A DNA stretch of 64,000 nt from Saprospiraceae bacterium (GTDB lineage Bacteria; Bacteroidota; Bacteroidia; Chitinophagales; Saprospiraceae), in the NCBI GenBank assembly GCA_020628475.1, contig JAHDFB010000003.1:10142-74141 (forward strand), read 5' to 3'. Positions 13,342 to 56,505 of the stretch are shown piece after piece. Below the pieces are notes generated by a model, which saw nothing but the letters and a program-made list of their open reading frames with translations, did not search any database and was not told the DNA's origin. Both the position numbers and the translations under genes were made by a program. Position 1 is the first letter of the stretch. Every line of letters begins with the position of its first letter.

Positions 13342-13352
13342 GCAATGGATCT

Positions 13353-16243: not shown

Positions 16244-16269
16244 TCTGATTAATATACTTTAAAATTTCA

Positions 16270-16926: not shown

Positions 16927-17051
16927 GGAATGTGGAGAGTGGCGACAACGGAGCCATCCTGACGTCGCAGACGGAATGGATGAGTCGCACGAAACTCGAA
17001 ACTCTCCGACCCCGCTAATGAAATGCAATGAAATTTGGCGGGGGCACGCCC
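16901..17051 (-). repeat. GC-rich structured intergenic element, copy B (reverse orientation)
   Basis: Read on the reverse strand it begins GGGCGT, followed by a hairpin (CCCCGC / GCGGGG; plus-strand 17039-17044 and 17010-17015) and TCGG ... TCATCCATTC. Then comes a hairpin CGTCtgcGACG (plus-strand 16963-16973), TCAGGATGG ... GTCGCC ... GATGAAC. Confidence 0.7.
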
Positions 17052-17082
17052 ACTTTACTAAAACTATATGTATTTTTGAACT

Positions 17083-32282: not shown

Positions 32283-33680
32283 ATGGCCAAAAAAAAATAC
32301 GCAATTATTGACATCGAGACCACCGGTGGCATGGCTAAAAGAGACAAAATTACCGAAATCGGCATAGTCATTCACAATGGTGAAGAAGTGATTGATCAGT
32401 TCGAAAGCCTCATCAATCCCGGTAGATCCATTCCGGCGAATATTACAAGAATTACAGGAATAACCAACGACATGGTCGCCGATGCACCACCCTTTTATGA
32501 AATAGCCAAAACCATTGTCGAAATGACCGAAGGCGCTATTTTCGTGGCACACAATGTTCGCTTCGATTATAGTTTTATTCGTGAGGCATTTGCAGAATTG
32601 GGCTATACCTTTTCAAAAAGACAACTATGCACCGTTCGATTATCCCGTAAAGCCTTTCCTGGGCTAAAATCCTATAGCTTAGGGAACCTGATTCGGCACT
32701 TTGACATTAAGGTCAATGCTCGTCACCGAGCGTTGGACGATGCTAAAGCTACCGCAATCCTATTAGACAAAATCCTTAAACAAGAAGCCAATAACGAACA
32801 TATTAATCACTTGATTAATGAAGGAATCAAAGAGAGTCGATTACCAAAAAACATCAATCTCGAATTCTTACACAGTCTTCCTGAATCATGCGGGGTTTAT
32901 TACTTTCATAATGAATATGGCACCCCAGTTTATATTGGTAAAAGTATCAACATTAAAAAACGCGTATTTCAGCATTTTTCAAAAACCACCAAGAAGGCAG
33001 AAAATTTACAGAAATTCGTACACCACATCAGCTTTGAATTAACAGGAAGTGAACTCGCTTCCATGATTTTGGAATCTCAGGAAATCAAGAAATTCAGACC
33101 TGAGATAAATAAGGCTCAACGCACAAGAGAATATCCCTATTTTATACATCAATACTATGATACGGAGGGATATGTGCGATATGCAATTCTCAAAACCAGC
33201 AAGAAAAACGAACAAAACAAGGACATACTGGGTTACTTCAGTTCCCTTAGAAATGCCAAAGGACAGATAAATAACATACTCAAAGCACTGGAATTATGTG
33301 AATACAAAACCGGTTTGGTCAAAGAAGAAGATGGTCCCTGTTATTCCTACAAACTAAAACAATGTTACGGAGCCTGCATTCATGAAGAATCTGCAGAAGA
33401 TTATAATGAAAGAGCCAGTCTGGCGAGACCATTTCTAGAAAAAAAATTCGACAAGGATTTTATACTTATTGATCGTGGAAGATCCGAAGAAGAAAAATCC
33501 GTTTTCTTGGTTCAAGATGAACACTTTCAAGGTTTCGGCTATATCGGATTAGAAGAACTAAATCTAGGTATAGAAGAAATGCTTGAAGCCATCAAATATG
33601 TGAAACCAAATCCAGAAATGAATGGTATCGTTAAAAATTACGTACTCGATAAGAAGTATGAAAATATACTGAATATATAA
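32283..33680 (+). CDS. DnaQ-like 3'-5' exonuclease fused to GIY-YIG (UvrC/Cho-like) nuclease domain
   Basis: 465-aa ORF with DEDDh motifs (AIIDIETTG, FVAHNVRFDYSF, HRALDDA) followed by GIY-YIG (GVYYFHNEYGTPVYIGKSINIKKRVFQH). Confidence 0.8.
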   Translation: MAKKKYAIIDIETTGGMAKRDKITEIGIVIHNGEEVIDQFESLINPGRSIPANITRITGITNDMVADAPPFYEIAKTIVEMTEGAIFVAHNVRFDYSFIREAFAELGYTFSKRQLCTVRLSRKAFPGLKSYSLGNLIRHFDIKVNARHRALDDAKATAILLDKILKQEANNEHINHLINEGIKESRLPKNINLEFLHSLPESCGVYYFHNEYGTPVYIGKSINIKKRVFQHFSKTTKKAENLQKFVHHISFELTGSELASMILESQEIKKFRPEINKAQRTREYPYFIHQYYDTEGYVRYAILKTSKKNEQNKDILGYFSSLRNAKGQINNILKALELCEYKTGLVKEEDGPCYSYKLKQCYGACIHEESAEDYNERASLARPFLEKKFDKDFILIDRGRSEEEKSVFLVQDEHFQGFGYIGLEELNLGIEEMLEAIKYVKPNPEMNGIVKNYVLDKKYENILNI

Positions 33681-33697
33681 TTTGTATATTTAGTACC

Positions 33698-35071
33698 ATG
33701 AAAACGGATAATGGACGCAGAAAAGCCTTGAAAAAACTTGGATTGGCTGGTGGAACGATCATGCTACAACCCCTCCAGCAATGGGATGAATTTGGACAAC
33801 GTTTGCATCGACCAGACCATAATCTTTCAAATAAACTTTCTAAAACGATCACAGCCATCACCTTAGGAGCTGGAGCCAGAGGAAATATTTACGGTAATTA
33901 TGCTACTCAATATCCTGATCAACTTCAAATTGTTGGAGTTGCAGAACCGATTCCTATTCGCAACGAACGATATTGCAAAAAACACAAAATTGAAGCAAAA
34001 AACAGTTTTGTTACTTGGGAACATGTCTTTGAACAAGATAAATTCGCGGATGCCATCATTATTACAACGCCGGATGACCTACATTATGGCCCCTGTATGA
34101 AAGCTCTGGAAATGGGCTATGATGTATTGTTAGAAAAACCCATTTCTCCATCGGAAGAAGAATGCCGAGATATACTAGAACTATCCAAGAAAACAGGACG
34201 TATCGTAGCGGTATGTCATGTGCTTCGATATGCACCTTATTTCCAATCCTTGCGTCAATTAGTACAGAATGGAAGTATTGGGCAGCTAGTCAGCGTACAA
34301 CATTTCGAGCCTATTCAACACATCCATATGTCGCACAGTTACGTCCGTGGTAATTGGCATAATAGTCAAAAAACGACACCTATCATACTAGCAAAATCCT
34401 GTCATGATCTCGATATCCTTCGATGGATTGTTGGAAAACCCGCCAAGAAAGTAACTGCTTTTGGTGCACTGAGTTGGTTTAAAAAATCAAATCAACCGAA
34501 GGGAGCAACCGCTCGATGTATGGACGGTTGTGCCGTTGAAAAAAACTGTCCTTACAGTGCAAAAAGAATCTATCTTGATCGAAGAACTTGGACCTACGTA
34601 TTTGACTTACCAGATAATCCAGCGGATCACGGTGCTGTAATAGAGCGCTACTTACAAGAAACAAATTATGGGCGTTGCGTATATGATATGGAAAATGATC
34701 AACCAGATCATTATGTGTGCAATATAGAATTTGAAGATCAAATTACTGCTTCATTCAGTATGGAAGCGTTCACATCCTATCATGGAAGGAGAACGAGAAT
34801 CATGGGATCTCATGGAGATATCGTCGGTGATATGTCTAAATATGTTCATACCAATTTCAATACTGGTGAAAAAACCGAATGGGCAATGGAAACCGATGGT
34901 CATGGCGGTGGTGATTGGAAGCTCGTAGCCGATTGGTTAATGGCCATCGATCAACAGAATCCTGCTTTGCTCAGTTCTACTATCGAAGCTTCAGTAGAAA
35001 GCCATATCATGGGTTTTCAAGCCGAAAAAAGTAGGCTCCATCAAAGCGTTGAACAAATTTTAATGACCTAA
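33698..35071 (+). CDS. Gfo/Idh/MocA family oxidoreductase with Tat-like signal
   Basis: 457-aa ORF with RRKALKKLGLAGG at the N-terminus, a Rossmann segment (LGAGARGN) and an EKP motif (VLLEKP). Confidence 0.8.
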   Translation: MKTDNGRRKALKKLGLAGGTIMLQPLQQWDEFGQRLHRPDHNLSNKLSKTITAITLGAGARGNIYGNYATQYPDQLQIVGVAEPIPIRNERYCKKHKIEAKNSFVTWEHVFEQDKFADAIIITTPDDLHYGPCMKALEMGYDVLLEKPISPSEEECRDILELSKKTGRIVAVCHVLRYAPYFQSLRQLVQNGSIGQLVSVQHFEPIQHIHMSHSYVRGNWHNSQKTTPIILAKSCHDLDILRWIVGKPAKKVTAFGALSWFKKSNQPKGATARCMDGCAVEKNCPYSAKRIYLDRRTWTYVFDLPDNPADHGAVIERYLQETNYGRCVYDMENDQPDHYVCNIEFEDQITASFSMEAFTSYHGRRTRIMGSHGDIVGDMSKYVHTNFNTGEKTEWAMETDGHGGGDWKLVADWLMAIDQQNPALLSSTIEASVESHIMGFQAEKSRLHQSVEQILMT

Positions 35072-35088
35072 TATATTCAACGAACGCC

Positions 35089-35613
35089 TTAATCTATATT
35101 TTCCAACTGAAACTGAATTGTTTCAAAATCAAAGGAAGGAATAAAATCTTCGGAAAAATCTTCTTTTAAAGTACACCGTAGACTAAACGAACCTTCTATC
35201 CAATCATCGTCAATATGACTGATCGTCAAGAAATAATCTTCATCATCTAGATTATAACAACCAAATAATATATCTCCACAACCAGTAGTTATGTAAAGTG
35301 CAATGCCAGCTTTATCTTCTTCATGAAAATCCTTCAAAAGATGATTACCTTCTTGGAGCGGAACTTCCTTAAAGCTCAGTGTAACTCGTTCACAATCCGT
35401 CGTATTTTGCGTTAATCCAAAATCAAAGTGATCATTCATCTTTCGAATGCCATAAGTCCATCCAGCATAAGCTGCTCCATTCAATTGACCATCCGCAACG
35501 ATGGTTTGTTCTTCCAACTCTTCGGGAAACTCAATTTCGGGATTTGCACAAGCTAGACAAAGTATCGAGCATAAAAATAATAAGCAATATACAGGGCTGC
35601 TAAAAGTATTCAT
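35089..35613 (-). CDS. hypothetical lipoprotein
   Basis: The ORF track gives 35089-35652. The internal ATG at 35613 yields MNTFSSPVYCLLFLCSILCLACANPE, which is lipobox-like. Confidence 0.5.
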   Translation of the reverse strand: MNTFSSPVYCLLFLCSILCLACANPEIEFPEELEEQTIVADGQLNGAAYAGWTYGIRKMNDHFDFGLTQNTTDCERVTLSFKEVPLQEGNHLLKDFHEEDKAGIALYITTGCGDILFGCYNLDDEDYFLTISHIDDDWIEGSFSLRCTLKEDFSEDFIPSFDFETIQFQLENID

Positions 35614-35720
35614 CGTATCTGTTTTTCTAATAGTAAAGATAATCCAAATCATTGGCTCTCTTCTCCACTTTCGTCAAAAGCCAATGCTTCGTTGCTGAAC
35701 AAACTACTATAAGAACGAAA

Positions 35721-37403
35721 TTATTGCAGCCGATGTAGATTATTCATTTTATAAATCAAATCACCGTGAATAGCAACCACCGTAGGTTTCGGAATCTGAT
35801 CGTCGTCAAAAGGCCATAAACTTGTTGGATGCTGTAGATCGCTTGTCTGCTCACCTGGATGTTGTACGCTCAAAAACAAGGTTTTCCCATCTGGGGCAAA
35901 CCAAGGTCCCGTAAATTCAGCATCTCTGGGCGCCGTCGCCACTCGTATAACCTTGCCGGCGTCATCACCAAATCGCGGAATCACAAACAAACTGTTATTC
36001 TTATAGGGCATATAGGGTCCCGAAGGTTGATTCATAGCGCTACCAGACATATCCGTCGTCATCCAAAGATTTCCAGCCAAATCAAAGGCCAAATTGTCTG
36101 GACAAGAAAAACCATGCGCTTCTCCACCCGCCAAATAAGTCGAAGCAGTGAATTTCAAAGCATCATATGCACCATTTTTTTCTTCAATCTTCAAGATAGA
36201 TCCGTGATAATCGCCCTTGTATTTATTATTTGTCAGAGAAACCAAGACATGACCTGTGATCGGATCAATCTCAATATCCTCTGGGCGATTCAATGGAGTC
36301 GCACCCAAAATGGCCGCAGCCTCTCTGGCTCTAATCATTACTTCTGTTTGATCCTTAAAACGCTTTTGAAGCAAAGGTTGCCGTTCCCAATCTAGGGCCA
36401 ACCATTTTCCTTGTATCGTATCCGCCACATATAAGGTTCCTTCCTTTAATGAATTCGGCTTCGATGAAACAAACTTATACATGTGTTCATCATTTCGATC
36501 ATCACCTGTATATGCCACAATACGATTGTCATCCAATTGATACAAGGTACAACATTCGTGTGCAAAACGACCTAAAGCAACATGTTTTTGAGCACTACCC
36601 GTTTTTGGATCGATCTCAACTACCCAACCGTAATGCTCGGGCGGATAATCATAAAACGAATCCCAACCGTAGTATTTACTAGGCATCTTGCTGGCGACAT
36701 TGTTCTCATCATAAATGGTTTCTCCGTAAAAACCATCATAATTCTCTTCACAAGTCAAAAAGGTATTCCAAGGTGTGATGCCTCCAGAACAATTTCCCAA
36801 GGTGCCAATCGCCATCGATGAACCCTTGATGGCTACATCCCAATTAAAAGGAATTGGTGTCTTTGCAGTGATTCTTCTATTATATGGATCATTTTCAACC
36901 AATTTCCATTGACCATCCTCTTTCCTGATGCGTACGATACTCCCTCCCACATTATACATTTCACTGTCCACTTGAACTTTGGTTCTGATTTGAGCAGGAT
37001 CCCGGTAATTATAATTCGACACAAAAAGCGAATCAATATACTCGTGGTTGACCCATAATAATCCATCTTCAGGATTCGCTTCATCAAGCGGAATAAAACA
37101 GGTAAAATCACAATTAAATCCAAATCGGTCCACATCATTAATAGACGTTCCCCACTTAATCACAGGGTAATAATCCATGCCTTCCGATAACAACAGATCA
37201 TCTTTATCAGAAGCCGCTATTTCCTTTAGCTTTATTCCTTTCAAAAAATTGATTACCTCAGATGACAATACTTCAGGCGTAAGCACCGTCGCTGTATTAC
37301 CGCAACGATTCAAAAATGGAGGAATGACAACCGCCATACTCGCTTTTCCTAAAAATGACAGAAATTCCTTTCTACTATATGTTCGCTTGGTAAACGCTTC
37401 CAT
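35721..37403 (-). CDS. phoX: PhoX-like (DUF839) secreted phosphatase
   Basis: The ORF extends to 37460. The start is ATG 37403 or 37460, and the N-terminus (SRKEFLSFLGKASMAVV) is a degenerate Tat-like signal. Beta-propeller motifs are RPEDIEIDPITGHV, PDNLAFDLAGNLWMTTD and FTGPWFAPDGKTLFLSVQHPGE. Confidence 0.75.
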   Translation of the reverse strand: MEAFTKRTYSRKEFLSFLGKASMAVVIPPFLNRCGNTATVLTPEVLSSEVINFLKGIKLKEIAASDKDDLLLSEGMDYYPVIKWGTSINDVDRFGFNCDFTCFIPLDEANPEDGLLWVNHEYIDSLFVSNYNYRDPAQIRTKVQVDSEMYNVGGSIVRIRKEDGQWKLVENDPYNRRITAKTPIPFNWDVAIKGSSMAIGTLGNCSGGITPWNTFLTCEENYDGFYGETIYDENNVASKMPSKYYGWDSFYDYPPEHYGWVVEIDPKTGSAQKHVALGRFAHECCTLYQLDDNRIVAYTGDDRNDEHMYKFVSSKPNSLKEGTLYVADTIQGKWLALDWERQPLLQKRFKDQTEVMIRAREAAAILGATPLNRPEDIEIDPITGHVLVSLTNNKYKGDYHGSILKIEEKNGAYDALKFTASTYLAGGEAHGFSCPDNLAFDLAGNLWMTTDMSGSAMNQPSGPYMPYKNNSLFVIPRFGDDAGKVIRVATAPRDAEFTGPWFAPDGKTLFLSVQHPGEQTSDLQHPTSLWPFDDDQIPKPTVVAIHGDLIYKMNNLHRLQ

Positions 37404-37685
37404 GTTAATCCTACTTTTCGATGATAACCATAAATCAAGTATTAAAATTATACGTTTCATGTAATTATAATGTTAGAGGAATGCTAACTTGTAATGAACG
37501 ATTGATTCTCCGCATATCTCTAACACGACAATTAATCATCAATTTTAACAATCGAGTTTAAACCTTTTTTCAAACATCCTGTTCATACTATAGTGATTGA
37601 GTAGCATAAACAATACTACAAAAATGGTTTAGTGGTAGAATTATTTTTGGAAATTATAACATTAGTTTAGTTAGTTAGTTGAATT

Positions 37686-37810: not shown

Positions 37811-39040
37811 TTAAGCCGGCATCAAATTCTCCTGTTCAAACACAGCTACATCCACAAACGTCTGCTTCAAATCTTCATAGCGCTCTCGTCTACGAATCAG
37901 AAAATGTTGATCCTGATAGATCAATACTTCAGCCGGTCTCGCCCGCAAATTATAATTACTGGCCATCGAAAAACAATAAGCTCCCGCATTATGAAAGACA
38001 ATCAAATCATTTTTACGCACTTCCGATAAAATCCGATCATTCGCAAACGTATCCGTCTCGCAGATATAACCCACCACATTATACAATTTTTTGTCTCCAG
38101 CAGGATTGGATACATTTTCAACCTGATGATAAGCATCATAAAACATCGGTCGAATTAAATGATTAAATCCTGAATTCAAACCTAAAAATGTGCAAGCTGT
38201 CGTTTGCTTAATCACATTCACCCGACAAAGAAAATAGCCAGCGTCACTCACCAAATATTTCCCCGGTTCAAATCGCAGGGTCAACTCCTTTCCATACGCT
38301 TCACAAAATCGATTAAAGCGCTTTGAAAACACACGTCCCAATTTTTTAATATCTGTCGTGCGATCCCCTTCTTTATAGGGTACTTTAAATCCACTCCCAA
38401 AATCAATATATTCTAAGCCTTCAATTTCTTGAGCCATCGAGAAAACCAATTCTGCCCCGCGCATATATATTTCAACATCAGCGATCTCACTACCCGTATG
38501 TATATGTATACCTTCCACTCGTATGTTCAACCGATCAATCATGCGTTTGACCAGGGGAAATTGATGTATTGAAATACCAAACTTGGAGTCGATGGCCCCT
38601 ACAGAAATCTTTAAATTTCCTCCGGCCATAATATGAGGATTGAAGCGAATACAGAGCGGATAATTCGGATATTTCATGGCGATAAATTCAAGCATATTTA
38701 GATTATCCACATTGACATGCACACCCAGTTCGATAGCTGCCTCATATTCGGCTTCACTGACATTATTGGGTGTATACATTATCTGATCTGGCTCAAATCC
38801 ACATTCCAAAGCCAATCGAACTTCGTTTAAAGAAACGCAGTCTACCCCACTTCCTAAGGATTTCAACAGTTTTAATATAGCCGGATTGGTTAATGCCTTG
38901 CAGGCGTAATGTACTTTTAAGTTCGGCACCTTAAACTGATTCACGAAGCGCTGATAATTTTCTACGATTCGATCCCCGTCATAAATGTACAAGGGACTTC
39001 CATATTCCTGTGCCAATTGGCTAAAATCAATCTGATTCAT
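37811..39040 (-). CDS. lysA: diaminopimelate decarboxylase
   Basis: 409-aa ORF with the fold-type III PLP decarboxylase pattern (HYACKALTN with the PLP lysine, HIHTGS, GYICETD). Confidence 0.85.
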   Translation of the reverse strand: MNQIDFSQLAQEYGSPLYIYDGDRIVENYQRFVNQFKVPNLKVHYACKALTNPAILKLLKSLGSGVDCVSLNEVRLALECGFEPDQIMYTPNNVSEAEYEAAIELGVHVNVDNLNMLEFIAMKYPNYPLCIRFNPHIMAGGNLKISVGAIDSKFGISIHQFPLVKRMIDRLNIRVEGIHIHTGSEIADVEIYMRGAELVFSMAQEIEGLEYIDFGSGFKVPYKEGDRTTDIKKLGRVFSKRFNRFCEAYGKELTLRFEPGKYLVSDAGYFLCRVNVIKQTTACTFLGLNSGFNHLIRPMFYDAYHQVENVSNPAGDKKLYNVVGYICETDTFANDRILSEVRKNDLIVFHNAGAYCFSMASNYNLRARPAEVLIYQDQHFLIRRRERYEDLKQTFVDVAVFEQENLMPA

Positions 39041-41327: not shown

Positions 41328-42413
41328 TTAGGTATTTATTTTGACTGTTTCTGTAGGTTTCAGTACTTCATTTCTAATGTTGACTTGACGGATAAAGTTC
41401 CCAATCATCTCATCAAAGTAAGGCTTGGCCAAATTTCCTTCTTGTAGAATGATAGGACTACCTTGATCGCCTCCCTCTCGTATACCCTGAATCAACGGAA
41501 TCTGTCCTAAAAGCACAGAATTAGCTGCCTTCGCCAGTGATTTTCCGCCACCTTCTCCAAACAAATAGTACTTATTATCCGGTAATTCCGCTGGAGTAAA
41601 CCAACTCATATTCTCAACAACACCAAGAATAGGTACCTGTACATTAGGAAGTAAAAACATGTTCATTGCTTTGACCGCATCAACCACGGCCACTTCTTGT
41701 GGAGTAGTCACCATGACGGCTCCTGTGACAGGTACGGTCTGTACCATGGTCAATTGGATATCCCCCGTTCCCGGTGGCAAATCAATAATCATAAAGTCCA
41801 ACTCCGGCCAGAGACAATCATTGATAAATTGCTTGATAATACCCCCGAGACGCGGACCTCTCAAAACAACGGCCTGTTCAGGTTCGATGATGAATCCCAT
41901 CGAAATAGCATAGACGCCTTCAAATTGAAGCGGTACGATTTTATGCTTACCGTAAAGACTTTCGATTTTTGGTCGTTTACCTTGGAGACCGAGCATGGTG
42001 GGTAAAGAAGGACCATATAAATCGGCATCCAAAATACCAACTCGATAACCCGCATTTTTTAAGCCCATGGCCAAGTTAACAGACATAGTAGATTTACCAA
42101 CACCTCCTTTTCCGGAGGCTACAGCGATGATATTTTTCACCTGAGGCAAGGCTCGATCTTTAGCGGATTGCGCATCGGAATGCATATGAATGTGTACATC
42201 GGCTTGAGGGTATTTGGTTTGAATCCCGGAGATGCAAGCAAAATTAATTTGCTGTTTGACAGCATCCTCCATGTCCGAATTATTGAGCGCAAAACTGATT
42301 TTATCACCGTTGATTTTCAACTCACTCACCAATTTGGCGCTGACGATATCCATCCCCGTTCTAGGGTCCTTGATCGCTCTCAAAAGCTCCACTATAACAT
42401 TACTATCTATCAT
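41328..42413 (-). CDS. apbC: Mrp/NBP35 (ApbC) family Fe-S cluster carrier ATPase
   Basis: 361-aa ORF with an N-terminal DUF59-like segment and a deviant Walker A (VASGKGGVGKST). Confidence 0.85.
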   Translation of the reverse strand: MIDSNVIVELLRAIKDPRTGMDIVSAKLVSELKINGDKISFALNNSDMEDAVKQQINFACISGIQTKYPQADVHIHMHSDAQSAKDRALPQVKNIIAVASGKGGVGKSTMSVNLAMGLKNAGYRVGILDADLYGPSLPTMLGLQGKRPKIESLYGKHKIVPLQFEGVYAISMGFIIEPEQAVVLRGPRLGGIIKQFINDCLWPELDFMIIDLPPGTGDIQLTMVQTVPVTGAVMVTTPQEVAVVDAVKAMNMFLLPNVQVPILGVVENMSWFTPAELPDNKYYLFGEGGGKSLAKAANSVLLGQIPLIQGIREGGDQGSPIILQEGNLAKPYFDEMIGNFIRQVNIRNEVLKPTETVKINT

Positions 42414-42506
42414 GTTTTGCGTATTCTTTTAGAAATTTGGCACAAAGGTAAAACAACTCCGAATTGATTTTAGTTTTTCTCAATGCTTTGTTTCTTTTTC
42501 GAAAGA

Positions 42507-42624
42507 GGGCGATGCCTGTCGGCCCCAGCTCTTCGTTGTTTCCCTAGGGTCATCCATTCGCTATGGCATAGCTCAGGACCTCCTTTCAGTCGGCAACTAC
42601 GATCTGTATCGCAGATTGAAGATC
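42507..42624 (+). repeat. GC-rich structured intergenic element, copy C (short form)
   Basis: The layout is GGGCGAT ... TGTCGG ... TCATCCATTC, then a hairpin GCTATggcATAGC (42560-42572), then TCAGGACC ... GTCGGC. Hairpin 1 is absent. The 3' limit is uncertain. Confidence 0.6.
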
Positions 42625-42630
42625 TAATAA

Positions 42631-43311
42631 TTAAAGTGTATACATAGCACCTAGTTGTACCCCAATTTGATATGGATAAACCTTGTACAACAAAAAATTG
42701 TGCATATAGAAGGCCTGTTGAGCACAGATTCCATAACTTAAATCGATCCGTCTAGATAGTTTCTGAGCATATAGAACCCCCAAATTATAGCTCAATATAG
42801 GCTTAAAATGATATTGCCAAATGGATATATCCATATTGATAGAATGATCCATAAAGATCTTATCCTTTTTAAGATCAAATAAGATATATCGCACCCCAGC
42901 TGACAACCCAAAGGTATAAATATCTATTTCTAAATCCAATATAAAATAATCTACTGGAAATGGATCATAATAAAAATATTCTCGAACCACTCGCTCCTTA
43001 TAAGATCGTTTCACGCCATGTATACCCAGGAGCAGCGAGTATTTCGAATCAATAATATAAGCATACTTCAAGTCCAATTCAATGCCTTGACTTCCACGGA
43101 CATAAATAAGACTATCGTAGGGCGAATATGACATACTTCCTACGTTTGCTCTATTGGAAAAATAATTCGTATACAAAGGTGAAATGGATAGATCAATAGT
43201 TTTACCGCTATCCTGAGCATACAAGCTTTGGACTGTCAACAGTATAACAGTGCCAATACTGAAAATCATTTTGATATAGGTAAAAGGAGATCTAAACATT
43301 CTACTATCCAA
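42631..43311 (-). CDS. hypothetical secreted beta-rich (outer-membrane-like) protein
   Basis: 226-aa ORF with a signal peptide ending SLYAQDS and an alternating beta pattern. It overlaps the upstream gene by 8 nt. Confidence 0.5.
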   Translation of the reverse strand: MDSRMFRSPFTYIKMIFSIGTVILLTVQSLYAQDSGKTIDLSISPLYTNYFSNRANVGSMSYSPYDSLIYVRGSQGIELDLKYAYIIDSKYSLLLGIHGVKRSYKERVVREYFYYDPFPVDYFILDLEIDIYTFGLSAGVRYILFDLKKDKIFMDHSINMDISIWQYHFKPILSYNLGVLYAQKLSRRIDLSYGICAQQAFYMHNFLLYKVYPYQIGVQLGAMYTL

Positions 43312-43681
43312 ATTTACGAAGTCCGATGAGATACAATACGCCTATGGGTTGCAACAGAATCCATTGAGGTGCAAAAACCGAGAAATAAATACTAGAAATG
43401 ACAAATGGAATGCCCATTAAAATATATAGTATTGCCAAGGGGCGCAAGGCTTGCAATCTAGATCGTTCTACCTCCGAAAATCCAACGGTTAATATCAGGT
43501 AGGAACTATAAAAAAGTATTATGGTGACAATATGCCAAGCACCAATCCACTCCGCTTGTTGTTGGGCCGTAAGCGAACTATTCATCAAAGGATCGACCAG
43601 CGTCCATTCTCCTCCAATCAAGTGGATGAAGGCAGTTAAAAGATTGATAATCCCAGCTAGTTTAATAGACCATTTTCGCAT
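43304..43681 (-). CDS. hypothetical membrane protein
   Basis: 125-aa ORF with four hydrophobic helices. It begins 2 nt after the TetR-family gene stop. Confidence 0.5.
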   Translation of the reverse strand: MRKWSIKLAGIINLLTAFIHLIGGEWTLVDPLMNSSLTAQQQAEWIGAWHIVTIILFYSSYLILTVGFSEVERSRLQALRPLAILYILMGIPFVISSIYFSVFAPQWILLQPIGVLYLIGLRKFG

Positions 43682-43682
43682 T

Positions 43683-44234
43683 TCAGATGGTTATAAAGTG
43701 ACTTAATTCGTGTTTTACTTGGCTCAAATAATCCGCCTCTTGCTTTTTATATCGGATCATCTCGTGATATCCGATGAGATACTTGTAAAAAATACTCGAC
43801 TTTATAGCAGCATCATTCACCGTATATCCAAGTCCTTGTAATAAATCAGCAGTAAATTGAATGCGCTGTTGATCCAATCGAGTGATAGTATCTGTGAGTG
43901 GAGGATTGCCTTGAGCGTATTTTTTCAGATAAAAGAAAAAATCAATCTCGTCATCTTTAAGAAAAGATAATTCGATCAATTTTTCAAATTGATTCATTGG
44001 ACTAGAGGCCTTATTGACCTGTTCGATAATCTTGGAAGTGCTCAGCATTTCCCAATATTGGATGATGGCTTGGACGAAGGCTTGTTTATTGGTAAAATGC
44101 CAATAAAAACTGGACTTATTCACCCTCAATTTCTTGGCCATACGTTCTACGATCAGGCCATCAATCCCCTTATCTGCGAATTGTTTATATCCCAATACTA
44201 TCCAGTCTTCTTTCGTAGCTATTATTTTTGGCAT
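43683..44234 (-). CDS. TetR/AcrR family transcriptional regulator
   Basis: 183-aa ORF with an N-terminal HTH (GIDGLIVERMAKKLRVNKSSFYWHFTNKQAF). Confidence 0.8.
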   Translation of the reverse strand: MPKIIATKEDWIVLGYKQFADKGIDGLIVERMAKKLRVNKSSFYWHFTNKQAFVQAIIQYWEMLSTSKIIEQVNKASSPMNQFEKLIELSFLKDDEIDFFFYLKKYAQGNPPLTDTITRLDQQRIQFTADLLQGLGYTVNDAAIKSSIFYKYLIGYHEMIRYKKQEADYLSQVKHELSHFITI

Positions 44235-44331
44235 TTTATTAAACGGTTGCGTTTATTAAACAAATATACAAAACGCATTCAATCTAAACGATACCGTCTA
44301 ATAAATTATAATCGTGGCATATAAGCTAAGT

Positions 44332-44524
44332 GGATCATCGAACTCGTGCGATAGCAACATGAAGCACTTGTCCCGAGTGATGGTATCACGAGTGGATGAG
44401 CAGTTTGACTGCGAATGCGCAATACTGCGACAGCCGCATCCATAAACCCGAAATATGCATTGAGCAAGAAATTCTTCATGGTAGATGGATCTATTCCATC
44501 ATCAAACCCGCGGCTGGATCGCCC
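44332..44524 (-). repeat. GC-rich structured intergenic element, copy D (reverse orientation, long form)
   Basis: Read on the reverse strand it begins GGGCGAT. A stem CAGCCGC / GCGGCTG (plus-strand 44431-44437 and 44510-44516) encloses a 72-nt insert. TCG ... TCATCCACTC follows, then a hairpin GTGATaccATCAC (plus-strand 44377-44389), then TCGGGA ... CGC ... GATGATCC. It starts 3 nt after the TonB-dependent receptor stop. Confidence 0.7.
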
Positions 44525-44527
44525 TAA

Positions 44528-46753
44528 TCATAATTTATACCCCACTTGAACACCAGCGAAATAATTCTGTTCTAATCCCGGATACAAATATCTTGGCGCA
44601 TTGCCTCCAAAGCTTCTTGGATTAACTGCCAGCATGGATGCATACTGCTCGTTGAAGATATTATTCACCGATGCGTGTATACGAATGGACCAAAATCGAT
44701 TCGCCCATATTTGATATTCTGCATGAAGATTACTCAAGTAATATCCCGGTACTTCGATCGTATTGGCATCGTCTGCAAACATCTTAGAAACCAACTGGTG
44801 CGACCAAGCCAATTTTCCGCGATAATGTTGTAATATGAAGGCCGCATGTGCGCGATGATTCGGATTACCTGGCAAAAAGGCTCCTGAAAAGTCTTGATTT
44901 TTATTGTTGAACTGAATAAATCGGTGTGGGCCGTATTGATAGGAAAAATTGGTTTTCAAATAATATTGATATCCAAGCTTATAGTATCGTCTAATGGTCG
45001 TTTCCACGCCTGGATGCCCTGTTACTCCAGCGTTGACCACGATATATTGATCTTCCGTTACACGTTCAGGCACCAACAAATTAAACACATACATATAATA
45101 CAATGCTGCATCGATCTCCCATTGACCGATCTTTCGGCGCATACCCACTTCAACATTGTAACCAGTCTCTGGCTCGATGGCCTCATTGATCAAATCTTCT
45201 TGTGTCAACGTCTCTTCCAAGGTAGGTATCGAATATCCATGCGATATGCTCAAATAATATAAATAATGGTCTTTGGTTTTGTATTCCAAAGAAATAAATG
45301 GACTCAAAATCGGTTTGTAACGGTACTGACCGCTTTGATCCCCGTTCGTGAGCAGAAAATCAGTCAATTGATAACGGGTGGCATTTAAATTCAAACCCGT
45401 TCGAAGATGTAAGAATTTCCAGCGATAAAGGTGTTCAAGAAATATATTGACATATGTCCTTTGTTCTTGATTATCAGAAAGTAACATTCCTGCACCTTGA
45501 TCCAGCGTCTCTCTGGTATTCCATCGTTCTCCTTCTCGGTACATCTCTGTTCCGAATAGAAATTCGCCTCGCTTACGTAAATACTCCACCGTATTGACCG
45601 ATCGAAATCCTACGAAAGCCGAAGTCTGATTTAAAACATTGAACGGTCGCCGTTCATCGTTGAAATACCTGCCTGCAAAGATGATATTCTTGGTCATCCA
45701 ATGGTTTGTAATTGGTAATTCATACGAGAGTCCACCATAACTTCGATTATTTTGCTCATTCCCATCGGCTTGTTGCCAATTGAAGGCCGCCTTTCTAGGA
45801 TTCACGTCAAAGTCGATTTCGGATAATGAACTAGGAATTTGAGCAGATAAATCCGTATGATTTATATAATATTTCAAGGCGCCTTTTTTCAAATCTAGAA
45901 ATCCCACGGAAGAAAAAATATGACGTCCCACCCTATTGTGCGCACGATATCCCACACTTAACAATCGATCGTAATTAGCGGCAACATAGAGTTTTTTATG
46001 TTTGATCGAGAACTCGGTATTATTTTTCAGTGTTCCATATGAACCGACCGACAATTGATTGGAAGCTTGAATGTTGTCCTGGGTATGATTCCGTATGCTG
46101 TAATGAATCGCACCACCTAATCCAGCACCAAATACCGGTCTTGTCGGTCCTTTATAGATATTGATCTTTTCGATAAATGATAAGTTGATATCTTCCAAAT
46201 TGCTCTCTCCAATTCCTGTCGTGATTGGAATATCATTGACATAAGCCCGGATTTTGGTGGTTGAAAAAGGCGATCGGCTACCAATTCCGCGTATGGTCAA
46301 TCGATTGGTATTCAGAGCTCCAGCATGCATAAAGAGGCCAGGTTTGGCATTGTATATATCTTGTTGACCTTGTACTACATTCGACGGAATATCGCTCTTC
46401 TCAATCCGCTCGAAGCTATGCGCATATTTATATTTATCAGGGACTGCAATAAGAACGGGATCAGAAAGCACATACATTGCTTCTTTCATCTTAAAAGTGA
46501 TTTCCAGGGAATTGATTCGGCGCGCAATCGGTTCATAAAAAACATGTATTATTCGAATACTATCACCTATAGATGCTTCGATTTCGAAACGACCTTCAAA
46601 ATCTGTCTGAATAGTGATATCTCGATCCACATTCTCGACCATCGCTCCTATAAGCGCAATTTTAGTCGCCTTGTCTATGACTTGCCCTTGTAGAGTTTGA
46701 CCAAGTATCCATCCCGGCAGGCAAAGAAAGAAGAATAGATAAAATACTTTCAT
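44528..46753 (-). CDS. TonB-dependent receptor with carboxypeptidase-regulatory-like N-domain
   Basis: 741-aa ORF with a signal peptide and an N-domain (LQGQVIDKATKIALIGAMVEN). The plug region contains IEKINIYKGP, and a long beta-barrel follows. Confidence 0.85.
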   Translation of the reverse strand: MKVFYLFFFLCLPGWILGQTLQGQVIDKATKIALIGAMVENVDRDITIQTDFEGRFEIEASIGDSIRIIHVFYEPIARRINSLEITFKMKEAMYVLSDPVLIAVPDKYKYAHSFERIEKSDIPSNVVQGQQDIYNAKPGLFMHAGALNTNRLTIRGIGSRSPFSTTKIRAYVNDIPITTGIGESNLEDINLSFIEKINIYKGPTRPVFGAGLGGAIHYSIRNHTQDNIQASNQLSVGSYGTLKNNTEFSIKHKKLYVAANYDRLLSVGYRAHNRVGRHIFSSVGFLDLKKGALKYYINHTDLSAQIPSSLSEIDFDVNPRKAAFNWQQADGNEQNNRSYGGLSYELPITNHWMTKNIIFAGRYFNDERRPFNVLNQTSAFVGFRSVNTVEYLRKRGEFLFGTEMYREGERWNTRETLDQGAGMLLSDNQEQRTYVNIFLEHLYRWKFLHLRTGLNLNATRYQLTDFLLTNGDQSGQYRYKPILSPFISLEYKTKDHYLYYLSISHGYSIPTLEETLTQEDLINEAIEPETGYNVEVGMRRKIGQWEIDAALYYMYVFNLLVPERVTEDQYIVVNAGVTGHPGVETTIRRYYKLGYQYYLKTNFSYQYGPHRFIQFNNKNQDFSGAFLPGNPNHRAHAAFILQHYRGKLAWSHQLVSKMFADDANTIEVPGYYLSNLHAEYQIWANRFWSIRIHASVNNIFNEQYASMLAVNPRSFGGNAPRYLYPGLEQNYFAGVQVGYKL

Positions 46754-46890: not shown

Positions 46891-47619
46891 TCAAATATTT
46901 TCATTCCAATAATAACTATCGGGTTGTATCCGCTCTCCAAAAATGGCGGTTCCAATACGAATCATAGTTGATCCTTCTTCAATAGCTATCTCCAAGTCCT
47001 TACTCATCCCCATCGAAAGCTCGTACATCTGTACGTTAGGAATTCTTAATTGATTAATCTCCTCTTGCACTTTTCTTAATAAACGAAAACACGTTCGTAC
47101 ATGTTCAGTGTTTGAACTTAATAATCCAATAGTCATGAGTCCTTTAATTTTCAAGGTATCAAAAGTTGCGATTTTTTGAACAAACTCGACGGCTTGTGCG
47201 GGATCTATTCCAAATTTGCTCTTCTCATTCGAGCTATTGACTTGGACCATAACCTCTATCGTTTTTCCTTCTCGTACTAATCTTTTATGTAATTTTTCTG
47301 CCACCCCCAGACGATCAATGGATTGAATACAGCTCGCATATTTAATGACTTCCTTAATCTTATTCGTTTGTAGATGTCCTATGAAGTGTATTTCGGGTTT
47401 CAAAGAAGAAATGGCATCTGCTTTCTGTTTTAATTCTTGGACCTTATTTTCACCGATTAGAGTCTCTCCAAGTTCCAAAGCATTTCGAATTGATTCTACA
47501 TTGACTGTTTTTGTTGCTAAGAGTAAACGAACCTCGTTTATATCTCGATGCGCCCTATTACATGCTCTTTCTATACGTTGATGAATGTTGAGCAGATTAG
47601 ACCTTAATTTTTCTTCCAT
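46891..47619 (-). CDS. yggS: YggS family pyridoxal-phosphate homeostasis protein
   Basis: 242-aa ORF with LLATKTV (PLP lysine region), IGENKVQE and IGHLQTNK. Confidence 0.85.
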   Translation of the reverse strand: MEEKLRSNLLNIHQRIERACNRAHRDINEVRLLLATKTVNVESIRNALELGETLIGENKVQELKQKADAISSLKPEIHFIGHLQTNKIKEVIKYASCIQSIDRLGVAEKLHKRLVREGKTIEVMVQVNSSNEKSKFGIDPAQAVEFVQKIATFDTLKIKGLMTIGLLSSNTEHVRTCFRLLRKVQEEINQLRIPNVQMYELSMGMSKDLEIAIEEGSTMIRIGTAIFGERIQPDSYYWNENI

Positions 47620-48683
47620 TATTTTTGATTCTTAGCGACGTAGACCCAAATTTCTTTTCCAGAAATAGTCACTTGTTTTACTCTTTCGTAAGCATCCACC
47701 TCATATTCATCTGAAGCTAAAAGTTCTTGATAACTGAGCTCAAAGATTGATCCTTGAATCTGGTCCTTGGGATTATCCGTTTTAATGGCAATGGGATGTA
47801 CACTTTTTCCACTAATTGAAACAACTGCTGGGTCCTGGATTTCTAGTTCCTCGATTTTGAACCCATTTAAGAAGCCTTTTTCACCCTGTAATTTGCGTCC
47901 ATAGGTGGACATTTGGACTGACTCCGATTGCAATGTTCCATACGAAAACAGATAACTTTTTTGTTCATTTTCTTTCTGCTTTTCTAATTGAATAATTTGC
48001 CTTTTAATAGATCGTAATGTTATATCCTTGGCCTCAGCATATGAAATTTGATAGGACCTTTCAATCTTCCTGAACTTTTTGGGATAATCACTGAGTAGAT
48101 CGTCGTAATATTTGTCTAGAGCTCTTTTATTAGGAAGTTTGAAGCACAATTTTAATTGAAAGCGTCTCAATAGAGCGGTATCAATACTTTCTATGAAGTT
48201 CGTTGCTCCTATTAGTATCACATCATTTGGTAACTGATCAACGAGTTGGATCACAGTATTGACCAATCGCCTCATTTCACCCGAAGCATTATTGGATTCC
48301 TCATAGCTCCTTGTCTTTGCTAATAAATCAAATTCATCAATAAACAAGACGGCTTTACCTCGAACAGCCTGATTAAATACATGAGCTACATTTTTGGCGG
48401 TTTCGCCTAATCTTGCTGAAATAAACCCACTCAAATTCAGAATGAAAATTCTTTTATTAAGAGCCTTTGCAATGGAACGAGCTGTAGCCGTTTTACCACA
48501 GCCTGTGAATCCATGTAATAAAATTTTATTGTCGATTGGAAGATTAAACGCTTTCAATGCAGTGTAATAATGAAACTCTTCCAACAAATGAGTCAATATC
48601 TTCCTATTTGAATCACTCAAATGGATTTTATCAAGTGGAAGAGCCTCATCTCGAGGAGTAATCGTGAGATTAATTGATGGCAT
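47619..48683 (-). CDS. classic AAA+ ATPase fused to a C-terminal gamma-glutamylamine cyclotransferase (GGACT/AIG2)-like domain
   Basis: 354-aa ORF with Walker A GFTGCGKT, Walker B VLFIDEFD, sensor-1 IGATN and SRH ALLRRF. The C-terminal ~110 aa carry FSYGTLQ, GSIFEL, SDEYEVDAYERV and WVYV, as in the GGACT/AIG2-like fold. The stop overlaps the yggS start (TAATG). Confidence 0.75.
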   Translation of the reverse strand: MPSINLTITPRDEALPLDKIHLSDSNRKILTHLLEEFHYYTALKAFNLPIDNKILLHGFTGCGKTATARSIAKALNKRIFILNLSGFISARLGETAKNVAHVFNQAVRGKAVLFIDEFDLLAKTRSYEESNNASGEMRRLVNTVIQLVDQLPNDVILIGATNFIESIDTALLRRFQLKLCFKLPNKRALDKYYDDLLSDYPKKFRKIERSYQISYAEAKDITLRSIKRQIIQLEKQKENEQKSYLFSYGTLQSESVQMSTYGRKLQGEKGFLNGFKIEELEIQDPAVVSISGKSVHPIAIKTDNPKDQIQGSIFELSYQELLASDEYEVDAYERVKQVTISGKEIWVYVAKNQK

Positions 48684-50506: not shown

Positions 50507-50524
50507 AAATATGATTGTTGTAAA

Positions 50525-50582
50525 AAATTAGGATTACTACAAGAGACGCAGGCGTCAACATTAAGTTAGGAATCCTAATTTT
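50525..50582. promoter_or_regulatory. second copy of the cluster motif (AAATTAGGATT ... AATCCTAATTT arms with 35-nt spacer; core TTAGGAATCCTAA)
   Basis: The arms are 50525-50535 and 50571-50581, with an inner palindrome GACGCagGCGTC. The 21-mer at 50562-50582 matches 49355-49375 at 19 of 21 positions. It sits 56 nt upstream of ATG 50506 and just downstream of the stop at 50606. Confidence 0.5.
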
Positions 50583-50605
50583 CCAAATTAAAAAAATAGA
50601 TTGGT

Positions 50606-50839
50606 TTAAGCTCTAAGGTCTTCAATCGAAGCGCCAAAGTTGATATGTAACACATTTCCTGAAGGTGTAATCAAGGCTGGAACAGATTTGACACCAGCGA
50701 TTACGGCTTCTTCCACGCGGCTGCTGTCTTCACCGATATGCACGACGTCGACATTTTCTGCTCCGACTAATTGGATGATATCTTCTTCTGCATGGATGCA
50801 AACGGGACATCCAGCATGATAAAAAATAGATTTACTCAT
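50606..50839 (-). CDS. small thioredoxin-fold protein (CPVC; redox-active disulfide protein 2-like)
   Basis: 77-aa ORF with a CPVC motif at residues 11-14 and a downstream VPAL (cis-Pro-like). Confidence 0.65.
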   Translation of the reverse strand: MSKSIFYHAGCPVCIHAEEDIIQLVGAENVDVVHIGEDSSRVEEAVIAGVKSVPALITPSGNVLHINFGASIEDLRA

Positions 50840-50885
50840 AATTTAAATCTTTAAAAAGGACATTAGCAATATTGCTAGAACAAAT

Positions 50886-50906
50886 ATAGTTAGGATTCCT
50901 TATTAT
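50886..50906. promoter_or_regulatory. third copy of the cluster motif (ATAGTTAGGATTCCTTATTAT)
   Basis: It matches 50562-50582 at 16 of 21 positions. The palindromic core is AGGATTCCT. It sits 47 nt upstream of ATG 50839. Confidence 0.4.
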
Positions 50907-51024
50907 TTATCAATAAATCATAAAAAAATATTTAATCGTCCGTTTATAGAGTGTTATACATATAAGTAATTTGAAATTACACCGATTCTTTTATTAAATT
51001 CGTATTTCAATATTTTACATCTCT

Positions 51025-54513: not shown

Positions 54514-56505
54514 ATGCAAGTTCATAGAAACCTTGATCAGCTTCCAACATTTACCCGAGCCGTCATTACCATTGGTTCGTTCGATGGGGTTCATATGGGG
54601 CATCAAAAATTGATTTCAAGAATCAATCAATTGGCAGCAGAAATTAAGGGAGAAAGTGTACTAATTACTTTTTATCCACACCCGAGGCAAGTCATTTATC
54701 CCAATGACCAAAGTCTACAATTGATCACTTCTCTTGAAGAAAAAATAGCCTTGCTCAAAAAGTTCGGTGTGGATCATGTGGTCGTTGTGCCCTTTTCTGT
54801 CGAGTTTTCGCAGCAAAATCCAAGAGAATACATTGAAAAATTTCTCTACGAAAAATTCAAACCATCTTTCATTGTTGTCGGCTACGATCATAAATTTGGA
54901 TTGAATCGTCAAGGCAATATGGAACTTCTTCAATCCTATGAAGAAAAACTTGGATTTAAAACGGTAAAAATAGACCAACAGGAGATTGAGGACATTACCA
55001 TTAGTTCTACCAAGATTAGAAATTCATTACTCCAAAATGAAATATCCAAAGCCAACAAATACCTGAATTATCACTATATGATATCTGGGAAAGTGGTTTA
55101 TGGTGAACAAATCGGTCAAAAAATAGGATTTAAAACGGCCAACATTCAAATTGATGATCGAAATAAATTGATTCCCATTGAAGGTATTTATGCGGTTTAT
55201 GTTTTTCATGAACAGGAACGCTATGACGGCATGTTATATATCGGTAATAAACCAACCATTCATAAAGATGGTAAACGGTCCATTGAAGTAAATATCTTTG
55301 ACTTCAACCAAAATATCTATGGCGCTTACATTCGACTCGAAATTGTTTCATTTATTCGAAATGATCAAAAATTCGACGGGCTGGAAGCCCTTAAAACCCA
55401 GTTGGCTAAAGATGAGATCTCTGCGCGTTCAGTGTTAAATTTCAAGGAGAATTATCAATCTAAAAAAGCCAAGACGGCGATTGTCATTTTAAACTATAAT
55501 GGAGAAGAAATTTTGGAATCGTATCTACCTTCTACTTTGCACTCCACAGATCGCCCTGTAGATTTTGTTATTATAGACAATGCGTCAACCGATGAATCGG
55601 TTTCTTTTATTAAAGAATGGCACCCTGAATATAAATTATTAGAATTCACCTCTAATTATGGCTATGCTGGCGGATATAATAAAGGACTAGAGCAATTGGA
55701 TTATGAATACGTTGCTCTGATCAACTCCGACATACAGTGTACTCAAAACTGGTTGGATCCTATCTTAGATAAAATGGAAGAAGACCCTTCCATTGCAGCT
55801 ATCTCACCAAAAATTAGATCCATAGAACAACCAGATCATTTTGAATATGCTGGCGCAGCAGGAGGATTTATTGATATATTAGCCTACCCTTTCTGTCGAG
55901 GTCGCTTATTTAGTACCGTAGAAAAAGATAGTGACCAATATCAAAGTGAACAAGAAATTTTCTGGGCGAGCGGTGCGGCTATGGTCGTACGAAAATCTGT
56001 TTTTGACGCGCTTGGTGGATTTGACGCGGATTATTTCGCCCATCAAGAGGAAATTGATCTGTGTTGGAGAATGAAAAGAGCCGGCTACAAGATTATGGTG
56101 CTTCCCGGATCACATGTTTATCATTTGGGTGGTGGTACCTTGGCCTATGAAAGTCCCAATAAAACCTATTTAAATTTCCGAAATAGTATGATCAATCTGA
56201 TCAAAAATGATGAGAGTGGTTTTTGGTTCTTCAAATTTGTCCTTCGTGTTTTATTGGATGGATTGGCTGGGGCACAAATGTTGGTTCAAGGAAAAGCAAA
56301 GAATATGTGGGCGATTGTACGCGCTCATTGGTATATATTTCCTCGACTGGGTCATTTTATTCGACAGAGAAAACAACTAAAAGATCGGATTGAAGAAGTT
56401 CGTATTGATAATAGCAATCGAAAAGGCATTTATACTTCCAGTATTGTATGGCAATATTTCGTTCGATCAAAAAAGGTATATAGTAAATTAAACATGCATG
56501 AGTAA
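54514..56505 (+). CDS. ribF: bifunctional riboflavin kinase/FAD synthetase fused in frame to a family 2 glycosyltransferase
   Basis: 663-aa ORF. Residues 1 to ~307 are RibF (VITIGSFDGVHMGHQKLI, FYPHPRQV, GFKTANI, EVNIFDF). Residues ~322-663 are GT2 (TAIVILNYNGEE, IIDNASTDES, ALINSD, FAHQEEIDLCWR). No stop or start codon lies between the two parts. Confidence 0.8.
   Translation: MQVHRNLDQLPTFTRAVITIGSFDGVHMGHQKLISRINQLAAEIKGESVLITFYPHPRQVIYPNDQSLQLITSLEEKIALLKKFGVDHVVVVPFSVEFSQQNPREYIEKFLYEKFKPSFIVVGYDHKFGLNRQGNMELLQSYEEKLGFKTVKIDQQEIEDITISSTKIRNSLLQNEISKANKYLNYHYMISGKVVYGEQIGQKIGFKTANIQIDDRNKLIPIEGIYAVYVFHEQERYDGMLYIGNKPTIHKDGKRSIEVNIFDFNQNIYGAYIRLEIVSFIRNDQKFDGLEALKTQLAKDEISARSVLNFKENYQSKKAKTAIVILNYNGEEILESYLPSTLHSTDRPVDFVIIDNASTDESVSFIKEWHPEYKLLEFTSNYGYAGGYNKGLEQLDYEYVALINSDIQCTQNWLDPILDKMEEDPSIAAISPKIRSIEQPDHFEYAGAAGGFIDILAYPFCRGRLFSTVEKDSDQYQSEQEIFWASGAAMVVRKSVFDALGGFDADYFAHQEEIDLCWRMKRAGYKIMVLPGSHVYHLGGGTLAYESPNKTYLNFRNSMINLIKNDESGFWFFKFVLRVLLDGLAGAQMLVQGKAKNMWAIVRAHWYIFPRLGHFIRQRKQLKDRIEEVRIDNSNRKGIYTSSIVWQYFVRSKKVYSKLNMHE

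Follow-up and report, generated by a model that had tools for sequence, protein, structure and literature searches.

Two GC-rich structured elements in inverted orientation, here termed C and D, bracket a three-gene operon encoding a TetR regulator in the chromosome of an uncultured member of the Saprospiraceae (Bacteroidota), within a 64-kb stretch of 38% G+C that was analysed as a whole and is referred to below as the window. The probability is about one half that a small, discrete, non-autonomous gene cassette (42507-44524), of the same family as the unit delimited by elements A and B at 13351-17051, has C and D as its inverted, structured ends. Presence or absence as a block was demonstrated for A...B by comparison with a relative, while for C...D the same behaviour is suggested by analogy.

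Structured elements in two inverted pairs

The initial annotation had placed the start of C at 42507 (plus strand) and the end of D at 44524 (minus strand) with GGGCGAT ends pointing outward, and both termini, GGGCGATGCC and GGATCGCCC, were located there; GGATCGCCC, which ends at 44524, reads as GGGCGATCC on the minus strand and forms the outer end of D. From the extents originally proposed, 42507-42624 and 44332-44524, the outer ends were retained and the inner ends were moved to 42612 and 44348, as set by the closing stem (Table 1). The interval between the two elements contains exactly three genes, all on the minus strand, and these make up the single operon that had been described (TetR, 125-aa and 226-aa proteins).

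Table 1. Elements, enclosed genes and flanking genes of the two units (window positions)
Feature	Position	Strand	Remarks
Element A, left member of pair 1	13351-~13487	+	inner end uncertain; core 13423-13451; perfect 12-bp hairpin 13360-13397
Cargo of pair 1	13552-16926		150 aa, 288 aa (- strand), 347 aa (alpha/beta hydrolase), 218 aa
Element B, right member of pair 1	16921-17051	-	outer end 31 nt upstream of asnC
mrp/apbC, backbone, downstream of C	41328-42413	-	Mrp/ApbC Fe-S cluster carrier ATPase
Element C	42507-42612	+	GGGCGATGCC terminus outward, facing mrp; closing stem GCGAT 42509-42513 / ATCGC 42608-42612
Core of element C	42550-42579	+	TCATCC ATTC GCTAT-GGC-ATAGC TCA GGAC
Cargo gene 3, 226-aa ORFan	42631-43311	-	signal-peptide-like N-terminus; 8-nt overlap with the 125-aa gene if TTG start
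Cargo gene 2, 125-aa membrane protein	43304-43681	-	weak Ion_trans_2 match; 1-nt gap after TetR
Cargo gene 1, TetR/AcrR-family regulator, 183 aa	43683-44234	-	Pfam TetR_N, E = 7.5e-10
Element D	44348-44524	-	GGGCGATCC terminus outward; closing stem GCGAT / ATCGC at 44352-44348
Core of element D	44399-44370	-	TCATCC ACTC GTGAT-ACC-ATCAC TCG GGAC
TonB-dependent receptor gene, backbone, upstream of D	44528-46753	-	Pfam Plug + TonB_dep_Rec_b-barrel

The four elements, each about 105-180 nt in length and GC-rich, have in common an outer terminus GGGCG(A)T(S)CC, an alignable centre of about 80 nt (A 13396-13476, B 16939-17011, C 42517-42596, D 44351-44433) and a core of the form TCATCC-AYTC-hairpin-TCRGGA, in which the hairpin has 4-5 bp and a 3-nt loop. 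A strict structured descriptor of this core gave 4 matches in the window and 0 in 2.1 Mb of other Saprospiraceae loci, and pairwise local alignment against shuffles yielded z values of 2.6-3.7 in four of the six pairs in the proposed orientation, as against -1.1 to 0.4 in the opposite one. Because terminus, centre and core are shared, and in view of the descriptor counts and the orientation-specific alignment scores, A-D are a genuine family, which is limited to one lineage and strongly diverged. The earlier description of both pairs as the same elements is upheld at this family level (terminus, centre and core hairpin), but a direct link between C and D, sought by a repeat search (12-nt seed) and by BLASTN, did not extend beyond the 30-nt core, at 73%. 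GGGCGAT alone is unremarkable, with 12 matches in the window versus 5.1 expected. The family hidden Markov model (HMM) recognized the centre of C (42517-42596) with E = 1e-11, and its only matches were A-D plus the copies in two relatives, L289 and L291, which are described below. The treatment of each pair as its own subfamily was dropped, as all pairwise scores were similar.

Both spacers of the C/D locus contain G+C-rich islands (up to 0.59 and 0.54 per 80 nt), and the only other intergenic islands of such richness in the window, 13342-13551 and 16927-17082, coincide with A and B. A fifth copy in the window was found neither by a looser descriptor nor by the HMM search. The G+C-rich patch at ~50600-50840 (minus strand), in the gap 50507-51024, was excluded as a fifth element and holds a small unlisted open reading frame (ORF) starting MSKSIFYHAGCPVC, which appears glutaredoxin/thioredoxin-like.

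Searches for established identities were negative. Rfam 15 gave no match at the gathering score across the window and nothing credible at E <= 10 in 42380-44600, and neither tRNA nor tmRNA was detected by ARAGORN. A scan of viral contigs with the core pattern returned 120 chance matches, 0 of them with the hairpin, and plasmid and phage collections held no match to element B. Scans for sigma-70 promoters and terminators, which were not designed for Bacteroidota promoters, found nothing in the elements. A coding remnant was likewise rejected, as indels of lengths not divisible by three separate the copies and break every frame, and no shared peptide exists.

The elements follow one another along the window in the order +,-,+,-, in agreement with the claim that two of two pairs are arranged plus-then-minus. 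Both units lie between co-directional backbone genes, A...B between a PA14-domain gene and asnC and C...D between the receptor gene and mrp, with the upstream end of the unit located 3-10 nt past a stop codon (A starts 9-10 nt past the stop of the PA14-domain gene, and the outer edge of D lies 3 nt past the TGA stop of the receptor gene) and the downstream end 31-93 nt ahead of the following start codon. In both units the cargo begins with a gene that points in the direction of the backbone, and the cargo of C/D runs the same way as the genes on either side. When four elements were placed at random in the intergenic gaps, <=4 genes were enclosed by each of two pairs in 6.6% of trials, and in 0.4% of trials both such pairs also faced outward (p = 0.004), a post hoc test that was framed after the data had been seen.

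Conserved fold and covariation

Element B folds into a three-way junction, P1[P2][P3[P4]], composed of the closing stem P1, the hairpin P2 and the arm P3 bearing the core, while element D carries a long second arm closed by CAGCCGC/GCGGCTG. RNAalifold returned the same three-way junction on both strands, with -27.8 and -31.8 kcal/mol, and 97% of the cells are paired in the proposed structure versus 36-53% when the partners are slid. The ends of one single element are joined only by the 5-bp closing stem (GCGAT/ATCGC or GCGTG/CACGC).

The fold is maintained by compensatory changes. In the three B-type copies (element B and its counterparts in L289 and L291), P2 reads CCCCGC/GCGGGG, CCCTGC/GCAGGG and CCCTAC/GTAGGG, and in the core hairpin of the B-type copies CGTC/GACG is replaced by GCCT/AGGC. 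The stems of the core hairpin in A (CGCAC), B (CGTC), C (GCTAT), D (GTGAT) and L289 (GCCT) are each self-complementary and differ from one another in sequence. As is generally expected of structured non-coding RNAs, P2 and the core hairpin covary, with a signal that is equal on both strands.

The stems are nearly all Watson-Crick, with ~1 G-U in ~115 pairs by a tally from the listed stems and 1 G-U in 69 counted cells. The few hints from G-U pairs and tandem G.A pairs conflict, as they indicate different strands, and the strand symmetry is fitted slightly better by DNA-level palindromes than by RNA. A hammerhead or a k-turn was rejected as the core upon inspection, since the conserved nucleotides do not fit.

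Block presence and absence of the first pair

Closer relatives of the window were found in Logan assemblies using its primary sigma factor (RpoD) as the query. The genomes referred to as L289 (SRR26831635), L290 (SRR26831621) and L291 (JGI 3300001203, from the Joint Genome Institute) match at RpoD with 86%, 84% and 79%, respectively. The 446-aa sigma matches P0123 and P0124 were rejected as RpoD relatives, being unrelated sigma factors with duplicated domains; 446-aa sigma-70 proteins with duplicated regions 2-3 were observed at L287:84-1424 and L288:383-1723, with scores near the self-match of the query and in unrelated contexts.

In L290, the PA14-domain protein, of which the C-terminus is present (65% identity to window 10879-13341), ends 29 nt before the start of asnC, and the locus is without A, without B and without all four genes of 13552-16926. 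Outside the A...B unit, the window has 9-10 nt plus 31 nt of DNA from the PA14 stop to the asnC start. Because this compares with 29 nt in L290, the difference between the two genomes corresponds to the A...B unit with breakpoints at its outer GGGCG edges; A...B is thus present or absent as a single block that breaks at the outer edges of its elements. The cassette-boundary role proposed by the initial annotation has in this way been put to a comparative test for pair 1 and is supported there by L290, but "cassette" is a loose label in respect of mechanism because a target-site duplication, a long terminal inverted repeat and a nearby mobility gene are all missing. No mobility domain was found in the cargo of either pair.

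L289 is syntenic with the window over 17-29 kb and carries a counterpart of B at L289:11357-11505, 31 nt upstream of asnC, and L291 contains a third B-type copy at 3425-3593, located 43 nt after rpoD; the partner ends in L289 and L291 fall past the contig ends. The known copies are four in the window, one in L289 and one in L291, with none in L290, and more distant Saprospiraceae (78% RpoD) keep START_2-rpoD(-asnC) with no element. Element B and its L289 counterpart agree at 85.5% of the aligned positions, compared with 57-67% for three other orthologous intergenic regions and 44-53% for third positions of codons in rpoD and in the squalene/phytoene-synthase (SQS_PSY) gene. Homology stops precisely at the inner CACGC in 3/3 B-type copies. 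In the window, this CACGC and the stop of the convergent 218-aa ORF overlap, and the end of that ORF lies beyond it; in L289 it gives way to 150 nt with stops in all frames and in L291 to unrelated sequence. At a single locus, B-type ends have been retained in three genomes next to inner-side DNA that varies among them.

Other indels were recorded in the same comparisons. An extra 143-aa ORF stands in L289 (2535-2966) between the genes for an MFS transporter and a 750-aa HHH-motif protein, which are 9 nt apart in the window, and this indel, having no flanking family element, serves as a control. The relative L006 lacks the GFO/IDH/MocA oxidoreductase, the 187-aa ORF and PhoX of window 33698-37460 between the orthologues of 32283-33680 and 37811-39040, again with no family element at the breakpoints. 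The elements are no general feature of variable sites, because indels without such ends exist.

Locus of the second pair

The gene order around C and D, all on the minus strand, is TonB-dependent receptor, 293-nt spacer, TetR, 125-aa gene, 226-aa ORF, 217-nt spacer and mrp/apbC. The nearest Mrp/ApbC orthologues in GTDB genomes belong to Saprospiraceae metagenome-assembled genomes with 75-77% amino acid identity. In six relatives at this level of Mrp identity, synteny extends over the mrp-nifU-pyrF(-fatty-acid hydroxylase) side and the side of mrp facing C differs, five of the six having another common upstream gene set, so that mrp synteny breaks off on the C side. A TetR gene, the receptor gene or a G+C-rich island upstream of mrp was found in none of the six (0/6). 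Among JGI metagenome contigs, the best Mrp match was 69%, and upstream of mrp neither the element nor the TetR operon occurs in any of the GTDB or JGI matches. The cargo of pair 2 looks accessory, because it includes the 226-aa ORFan, its TetR and 125-aa module is scattered in other genomes, and it is absent upstream of mrp in the six relatives.

Proposed mechanism

Each end carries GGGCG(A)T(S)CC at its outer edge and, on either strand, folds into a closing stem around a variable hairpin and an arm with the TCATCC...TCRGGA internal-loop hairpin. If C...D is a cassette, the unit would be inserted or excised whole by an enzyme which, because the window contains no transposase, integrase or recombinase, would have to be encoded elsewhere in the genome. 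This enzyme would recognize the folded or palindromic ends and not long terminal sequence identity, since only 7-9 terminal bases are shared, the stems are almost purely Watson-Crick and no target-site duplication is seen. The TetR unit would have come to lie between the receptor gene and mrp by the route that placed A...B between the PA14 gene and asnC.

A number of observations weigh against this proposal. The cassette status of pair 2 would follow from the A...B family and from geometry, by analogy only. Neither an empty site nor a second C...D unit was found among relatives that are distant and rearranged, and synteny upstream of mrp differs over >20 kb relative to them, so that no clean insertion stands out against them. 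For pair 1, the state of L290 may be a loss and not ancestral, as L291, the most distant by RpoD, has the element. B-type ends fixed at one locus (79-86% RpoD) and conserved above neutral fit a host-selected function equally well or better. Indels free of elements occur too, such as that of the 143-aa ORF in L289. No transposase, integrase or recombinase domain was detected among the ~50 genes of the window. The copies are ~55-65% alike, with n = 4 in 64 kb, and differ in this from recently active MITEs (miniature transposable elements with inverted repeats) or insertion sequence (IS) ends; the flanks of A, B, C and D are without a common direct repeat that would mark a target-site duplication, and no terminal inverted repeat extends beyond the 7-9-nt terminus. 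The objection drawn from B-type conservation falls if insertion is site-specific and recurrent, and recurrent site-specific insertion of related cassettes would reconcile the conservation, the differing inner flanks and the absence as a block.

A wider claim can be put forward tentatively, and we consider it possible but doubtful: the units may represent an undescribed kind of cassette, in which kb-sized accessory blocks with inverted ~105-180-nt ends, conserved as a three-way-junction fold, would be inserted a few bases past a stop codon without target duplication by a structure-recognizing enzyme encoded elsewhere, so far in one clade of uncultured Saprospiraceae. The logic of such a system would stand between integron attC recombination and hairpin-dependent single-strand transposition. 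If folded ends are recognized without a linked transposase, this would constitute a new route for the shuffling of small accessory operons in Bacteroidota, and such cassettes would escape current mobile-element finders, which seek transposases, long inverted repeats and target duplications. If the elements are host RNAs or insulators instead, they would make up a conserved family of structures that has not been described before, in a lineage that is uncultured and little studied. Under either reading, the family provides a concrete signature of sequence and structure for searches.

Alternative explanations

The main rival, judged rather unlikely, is that the elements are host-selected structured non-coding elements, either paralogous small RNAs of one family or insulators or terminators of transcription that depend on orientation, and not part of a mobile unit; their position at the edges would then result from the shielding of backbone genes against read-through, or from variable DNA accruing beside the elements. 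The conservation of B far above neutral at one locus in three genomes, with compensatory changes, agrees with this explanation, as do the GC-richness of the elements as islands in a 38% GC genome and the same polarity of all elements to transcription entering the enclosed block. On the strand opposite GGGCG, the core has the form YGA-stem-GAR, in which a Y-R pair covaries and tandem G.A pairs are possible, and the three B-type copies are preceded, 4-7 nt upstream of GGGCG, by TAnnTTTA/T, which resembles the Bacteroidota -7 promoter box. However, no Rfam family matches even at E <= 10, no promoter or terminator signal is consistent across A-D, and the orientation relative to neighbouring genes is inconsistent whichever strand is taken. 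Near-pure Watson-Crick stems that fold equally well on both strands are unusual for an RNA under single-strand selection, and a host function does not by itself explain how L290 came to be without both elements and the interval, with breaks at the outer edges.

It is improbable that the elements are old, decaying MITE copies or copies resembling repetitive extragenic palindromes (REPs) that were inserted independently into intergenic regions, the bracketing and the L290 difference being coincidental. The number of copies (four only), the post hoc nature of the placement test and the low identity between copies would suit such an origin, and many bacterial repeats are similarly intergenic, small, GC-rich and lineage-restricted. 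Decay would nevertheless wreck the hairpins, yet every copy keeps one with a different sequence, and the B-type copies are 85% identical versus ~60% for neutral DNA. Two independent insertions and an unrelated indel would moreover need to have both same breakpoints in L290, and the probability of the arrangement under random placement is 0.004.

That the inverted pairs are sites of site-specific recombination, with an invertible segment between them, is very improbable: the sites are inverted at both loci and contain short identical stretches (GGGCGAT, TCATCCA) as possible crossover cores, but inversion cannot yield the state of L290, where both sites and the segment are missing, the window contains no gene for an invertase or a recombinase, known inverton sites are short and nearly identical in contrast to these diverged 105-180-nt elements, and the orientation of the cargo relative to the backbone is the same at both loci.

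Comparison with known systems

MIC231 of the Bacillus cereus group is an example of a mobile insertion cassette (MIC). Tn3-derived MICs have been described in Xanthomonas (PMC4337579), a pair of 439-bp MITEs surrounds a class 1 integron in Acinetobacter (PMC3934969), and prokaryotic MITEs have been reviewed (PMC10969869). The units A/B and C/D resemble MICs and MITE-bracketed units in that two inverted copies of a short non-coding end flank passenger genes that include no transposase, and also in that movement is presumed to occur in trans and that a block differs in presence between relatives, as seen for pair 1 in L290. They differ from both in having 7-9 conserved terminal bases in place of 20-40-bp inverted repeats derived from insertion sequences, and ends that are 55-65% alike and constrained in secondary structure in place of nearly identical ones; neither a target-site duplication nor a partner insertion sequence or transposase was found in the window. 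MITEs carry terminal inverted repeats within the single element and produce a target-site duplication, and both features are lacking here.

Integron attC sites likewise combine low sequence conservation with a conserved folded architecture and delimit small variable cassettes. These sites have an R''/R' consensus (RYYYAAC/GTTRRRY), occur once per cassette in a single orientation and are found next to intI and attI, whereas the ends described here read GGGCGAT ... ATCGC, form inverted pairs and fold into a three-way junction, with no integrase in the window. IS200/IS605 elements, their miniature derivatives and REPs with their associated tyrosine transposases (RAYTs) offer another parallel, since their subterminal GC-rich imperfect palindromes are recognized as folded DNA and they lack terminal inverted repeats and target-site duplications. 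The hairpins of IS200/IS605 and REP/RAYT systems are, in contrast, on the same strand, while the ends here are reverse complements, and REPs are 20-40 nt long and highly repeated, different from 105-180-nt inverted ends around kilobases of cargo. None of the window genes encodes TnpA, RAYT or TnpB.

Families of structured small-RNA paralogues in Bacteroidota are also multi-copy, GC-rich, intergenic and ~100-200 nt long with a conserved fold. The present elements are set apart from them by the lack of an Rfam match, by strand-symmetric stems and by paired inverted copies at indel boundaries.

Cargo genes of the second pair

The 183-aa TetR protein has homologues, likewise of 183 aa, across Bacteroidota with 50-69% identity. 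Between D and the TetR start lies a 21-nt inverted repeat (44235-44255 / 44285-44305; TTTATTAAACGGTTGCGTTTA / TAAACGATACCGTCTAATAAA) that is 86% complementary and is probably the TetR operator. A comparable palindrome, TAAACGnnnnCGTTTA, occurs upstream of the TetR homologue in L292.

The 125-aa membrane protein shares 54-59% identity with a protein of 127-129 aa whose gene comes after that of the TetR homologue in L282, L283 and L285, a similarity which identifies it as a conserved partner of TetR in other Bacteroidota. The module of TetR and 125-aa protein is present in Maribacter, Jiulongibacter, Aquimarina and many uncultured Bacteroidota in unrelated neighbourhoods, and no flanking inverted elements or GC-rich islands were seen in the six contexts of TetR homologues that were read. 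The gene usually found after the TetR and ~127-aa module elsewhere is an overlapping 193-aa Flavodoxin_2/FMN-reductase gene (L282, L283, L285, L286); no remnant of it was found in the window, where the unrelated 226-aa ORFan occupies that position. In L286, a Logan contig (SRR5754723), a fragment of an IS91-family Y2 transposase (1913-2413) overlaps the 3' end of the FMN-reductase gene. This IS91-type transposase beside the TetR module is probably unrelated, and it hints that the module sometimes adjoins rolling-circle transposons.

The previously noted 1-nt gap was recovered between the TetR and 125-aa genes, and the 8-nt overlap between the 125-aa and 226-aa genes holds if translation of the latter starts at TTG, while an ATG four codons downstream gives a 222-aa form, as in the database. 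The sole match of the 226-aa ORF among 5.8 billion proteins is itself, to which a full HMMER search adds one match with 27% identity, and no Pfam, NCBIfam or PADLOC match was obtained. The 226-aa ORF and the 218-aa ORF of pair 1 were rejected as a shared terminal cassette gene, as BLASTP and hhalign gave nothing significant, and their predicted structures were unusable (pLDDT 30-34).

Other features of the window

Three further proteins encoded in the window were noted. The 1021-aa Por_Secre_tail protein (29071-32136) contains a 129-nt unit repeated four times in tandem at 31175-31857 with 71-77% identity, the units being repeated MopE-type metal-binding motifs. A single 663-aa ORF at 54514-56505 unites the domains of RibF (FAD synthetase/riboflavin kinase) with a family-2 glycosyltransferase domain, a fusion that is unusual unless a stop or a frameshift was missed. 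In the 354-aa protein at 47619-48683, an AAA ATPase domain is joined by a gamma-glutamyl cyclotransferase-like (GGACT) domain at the C-terminus.

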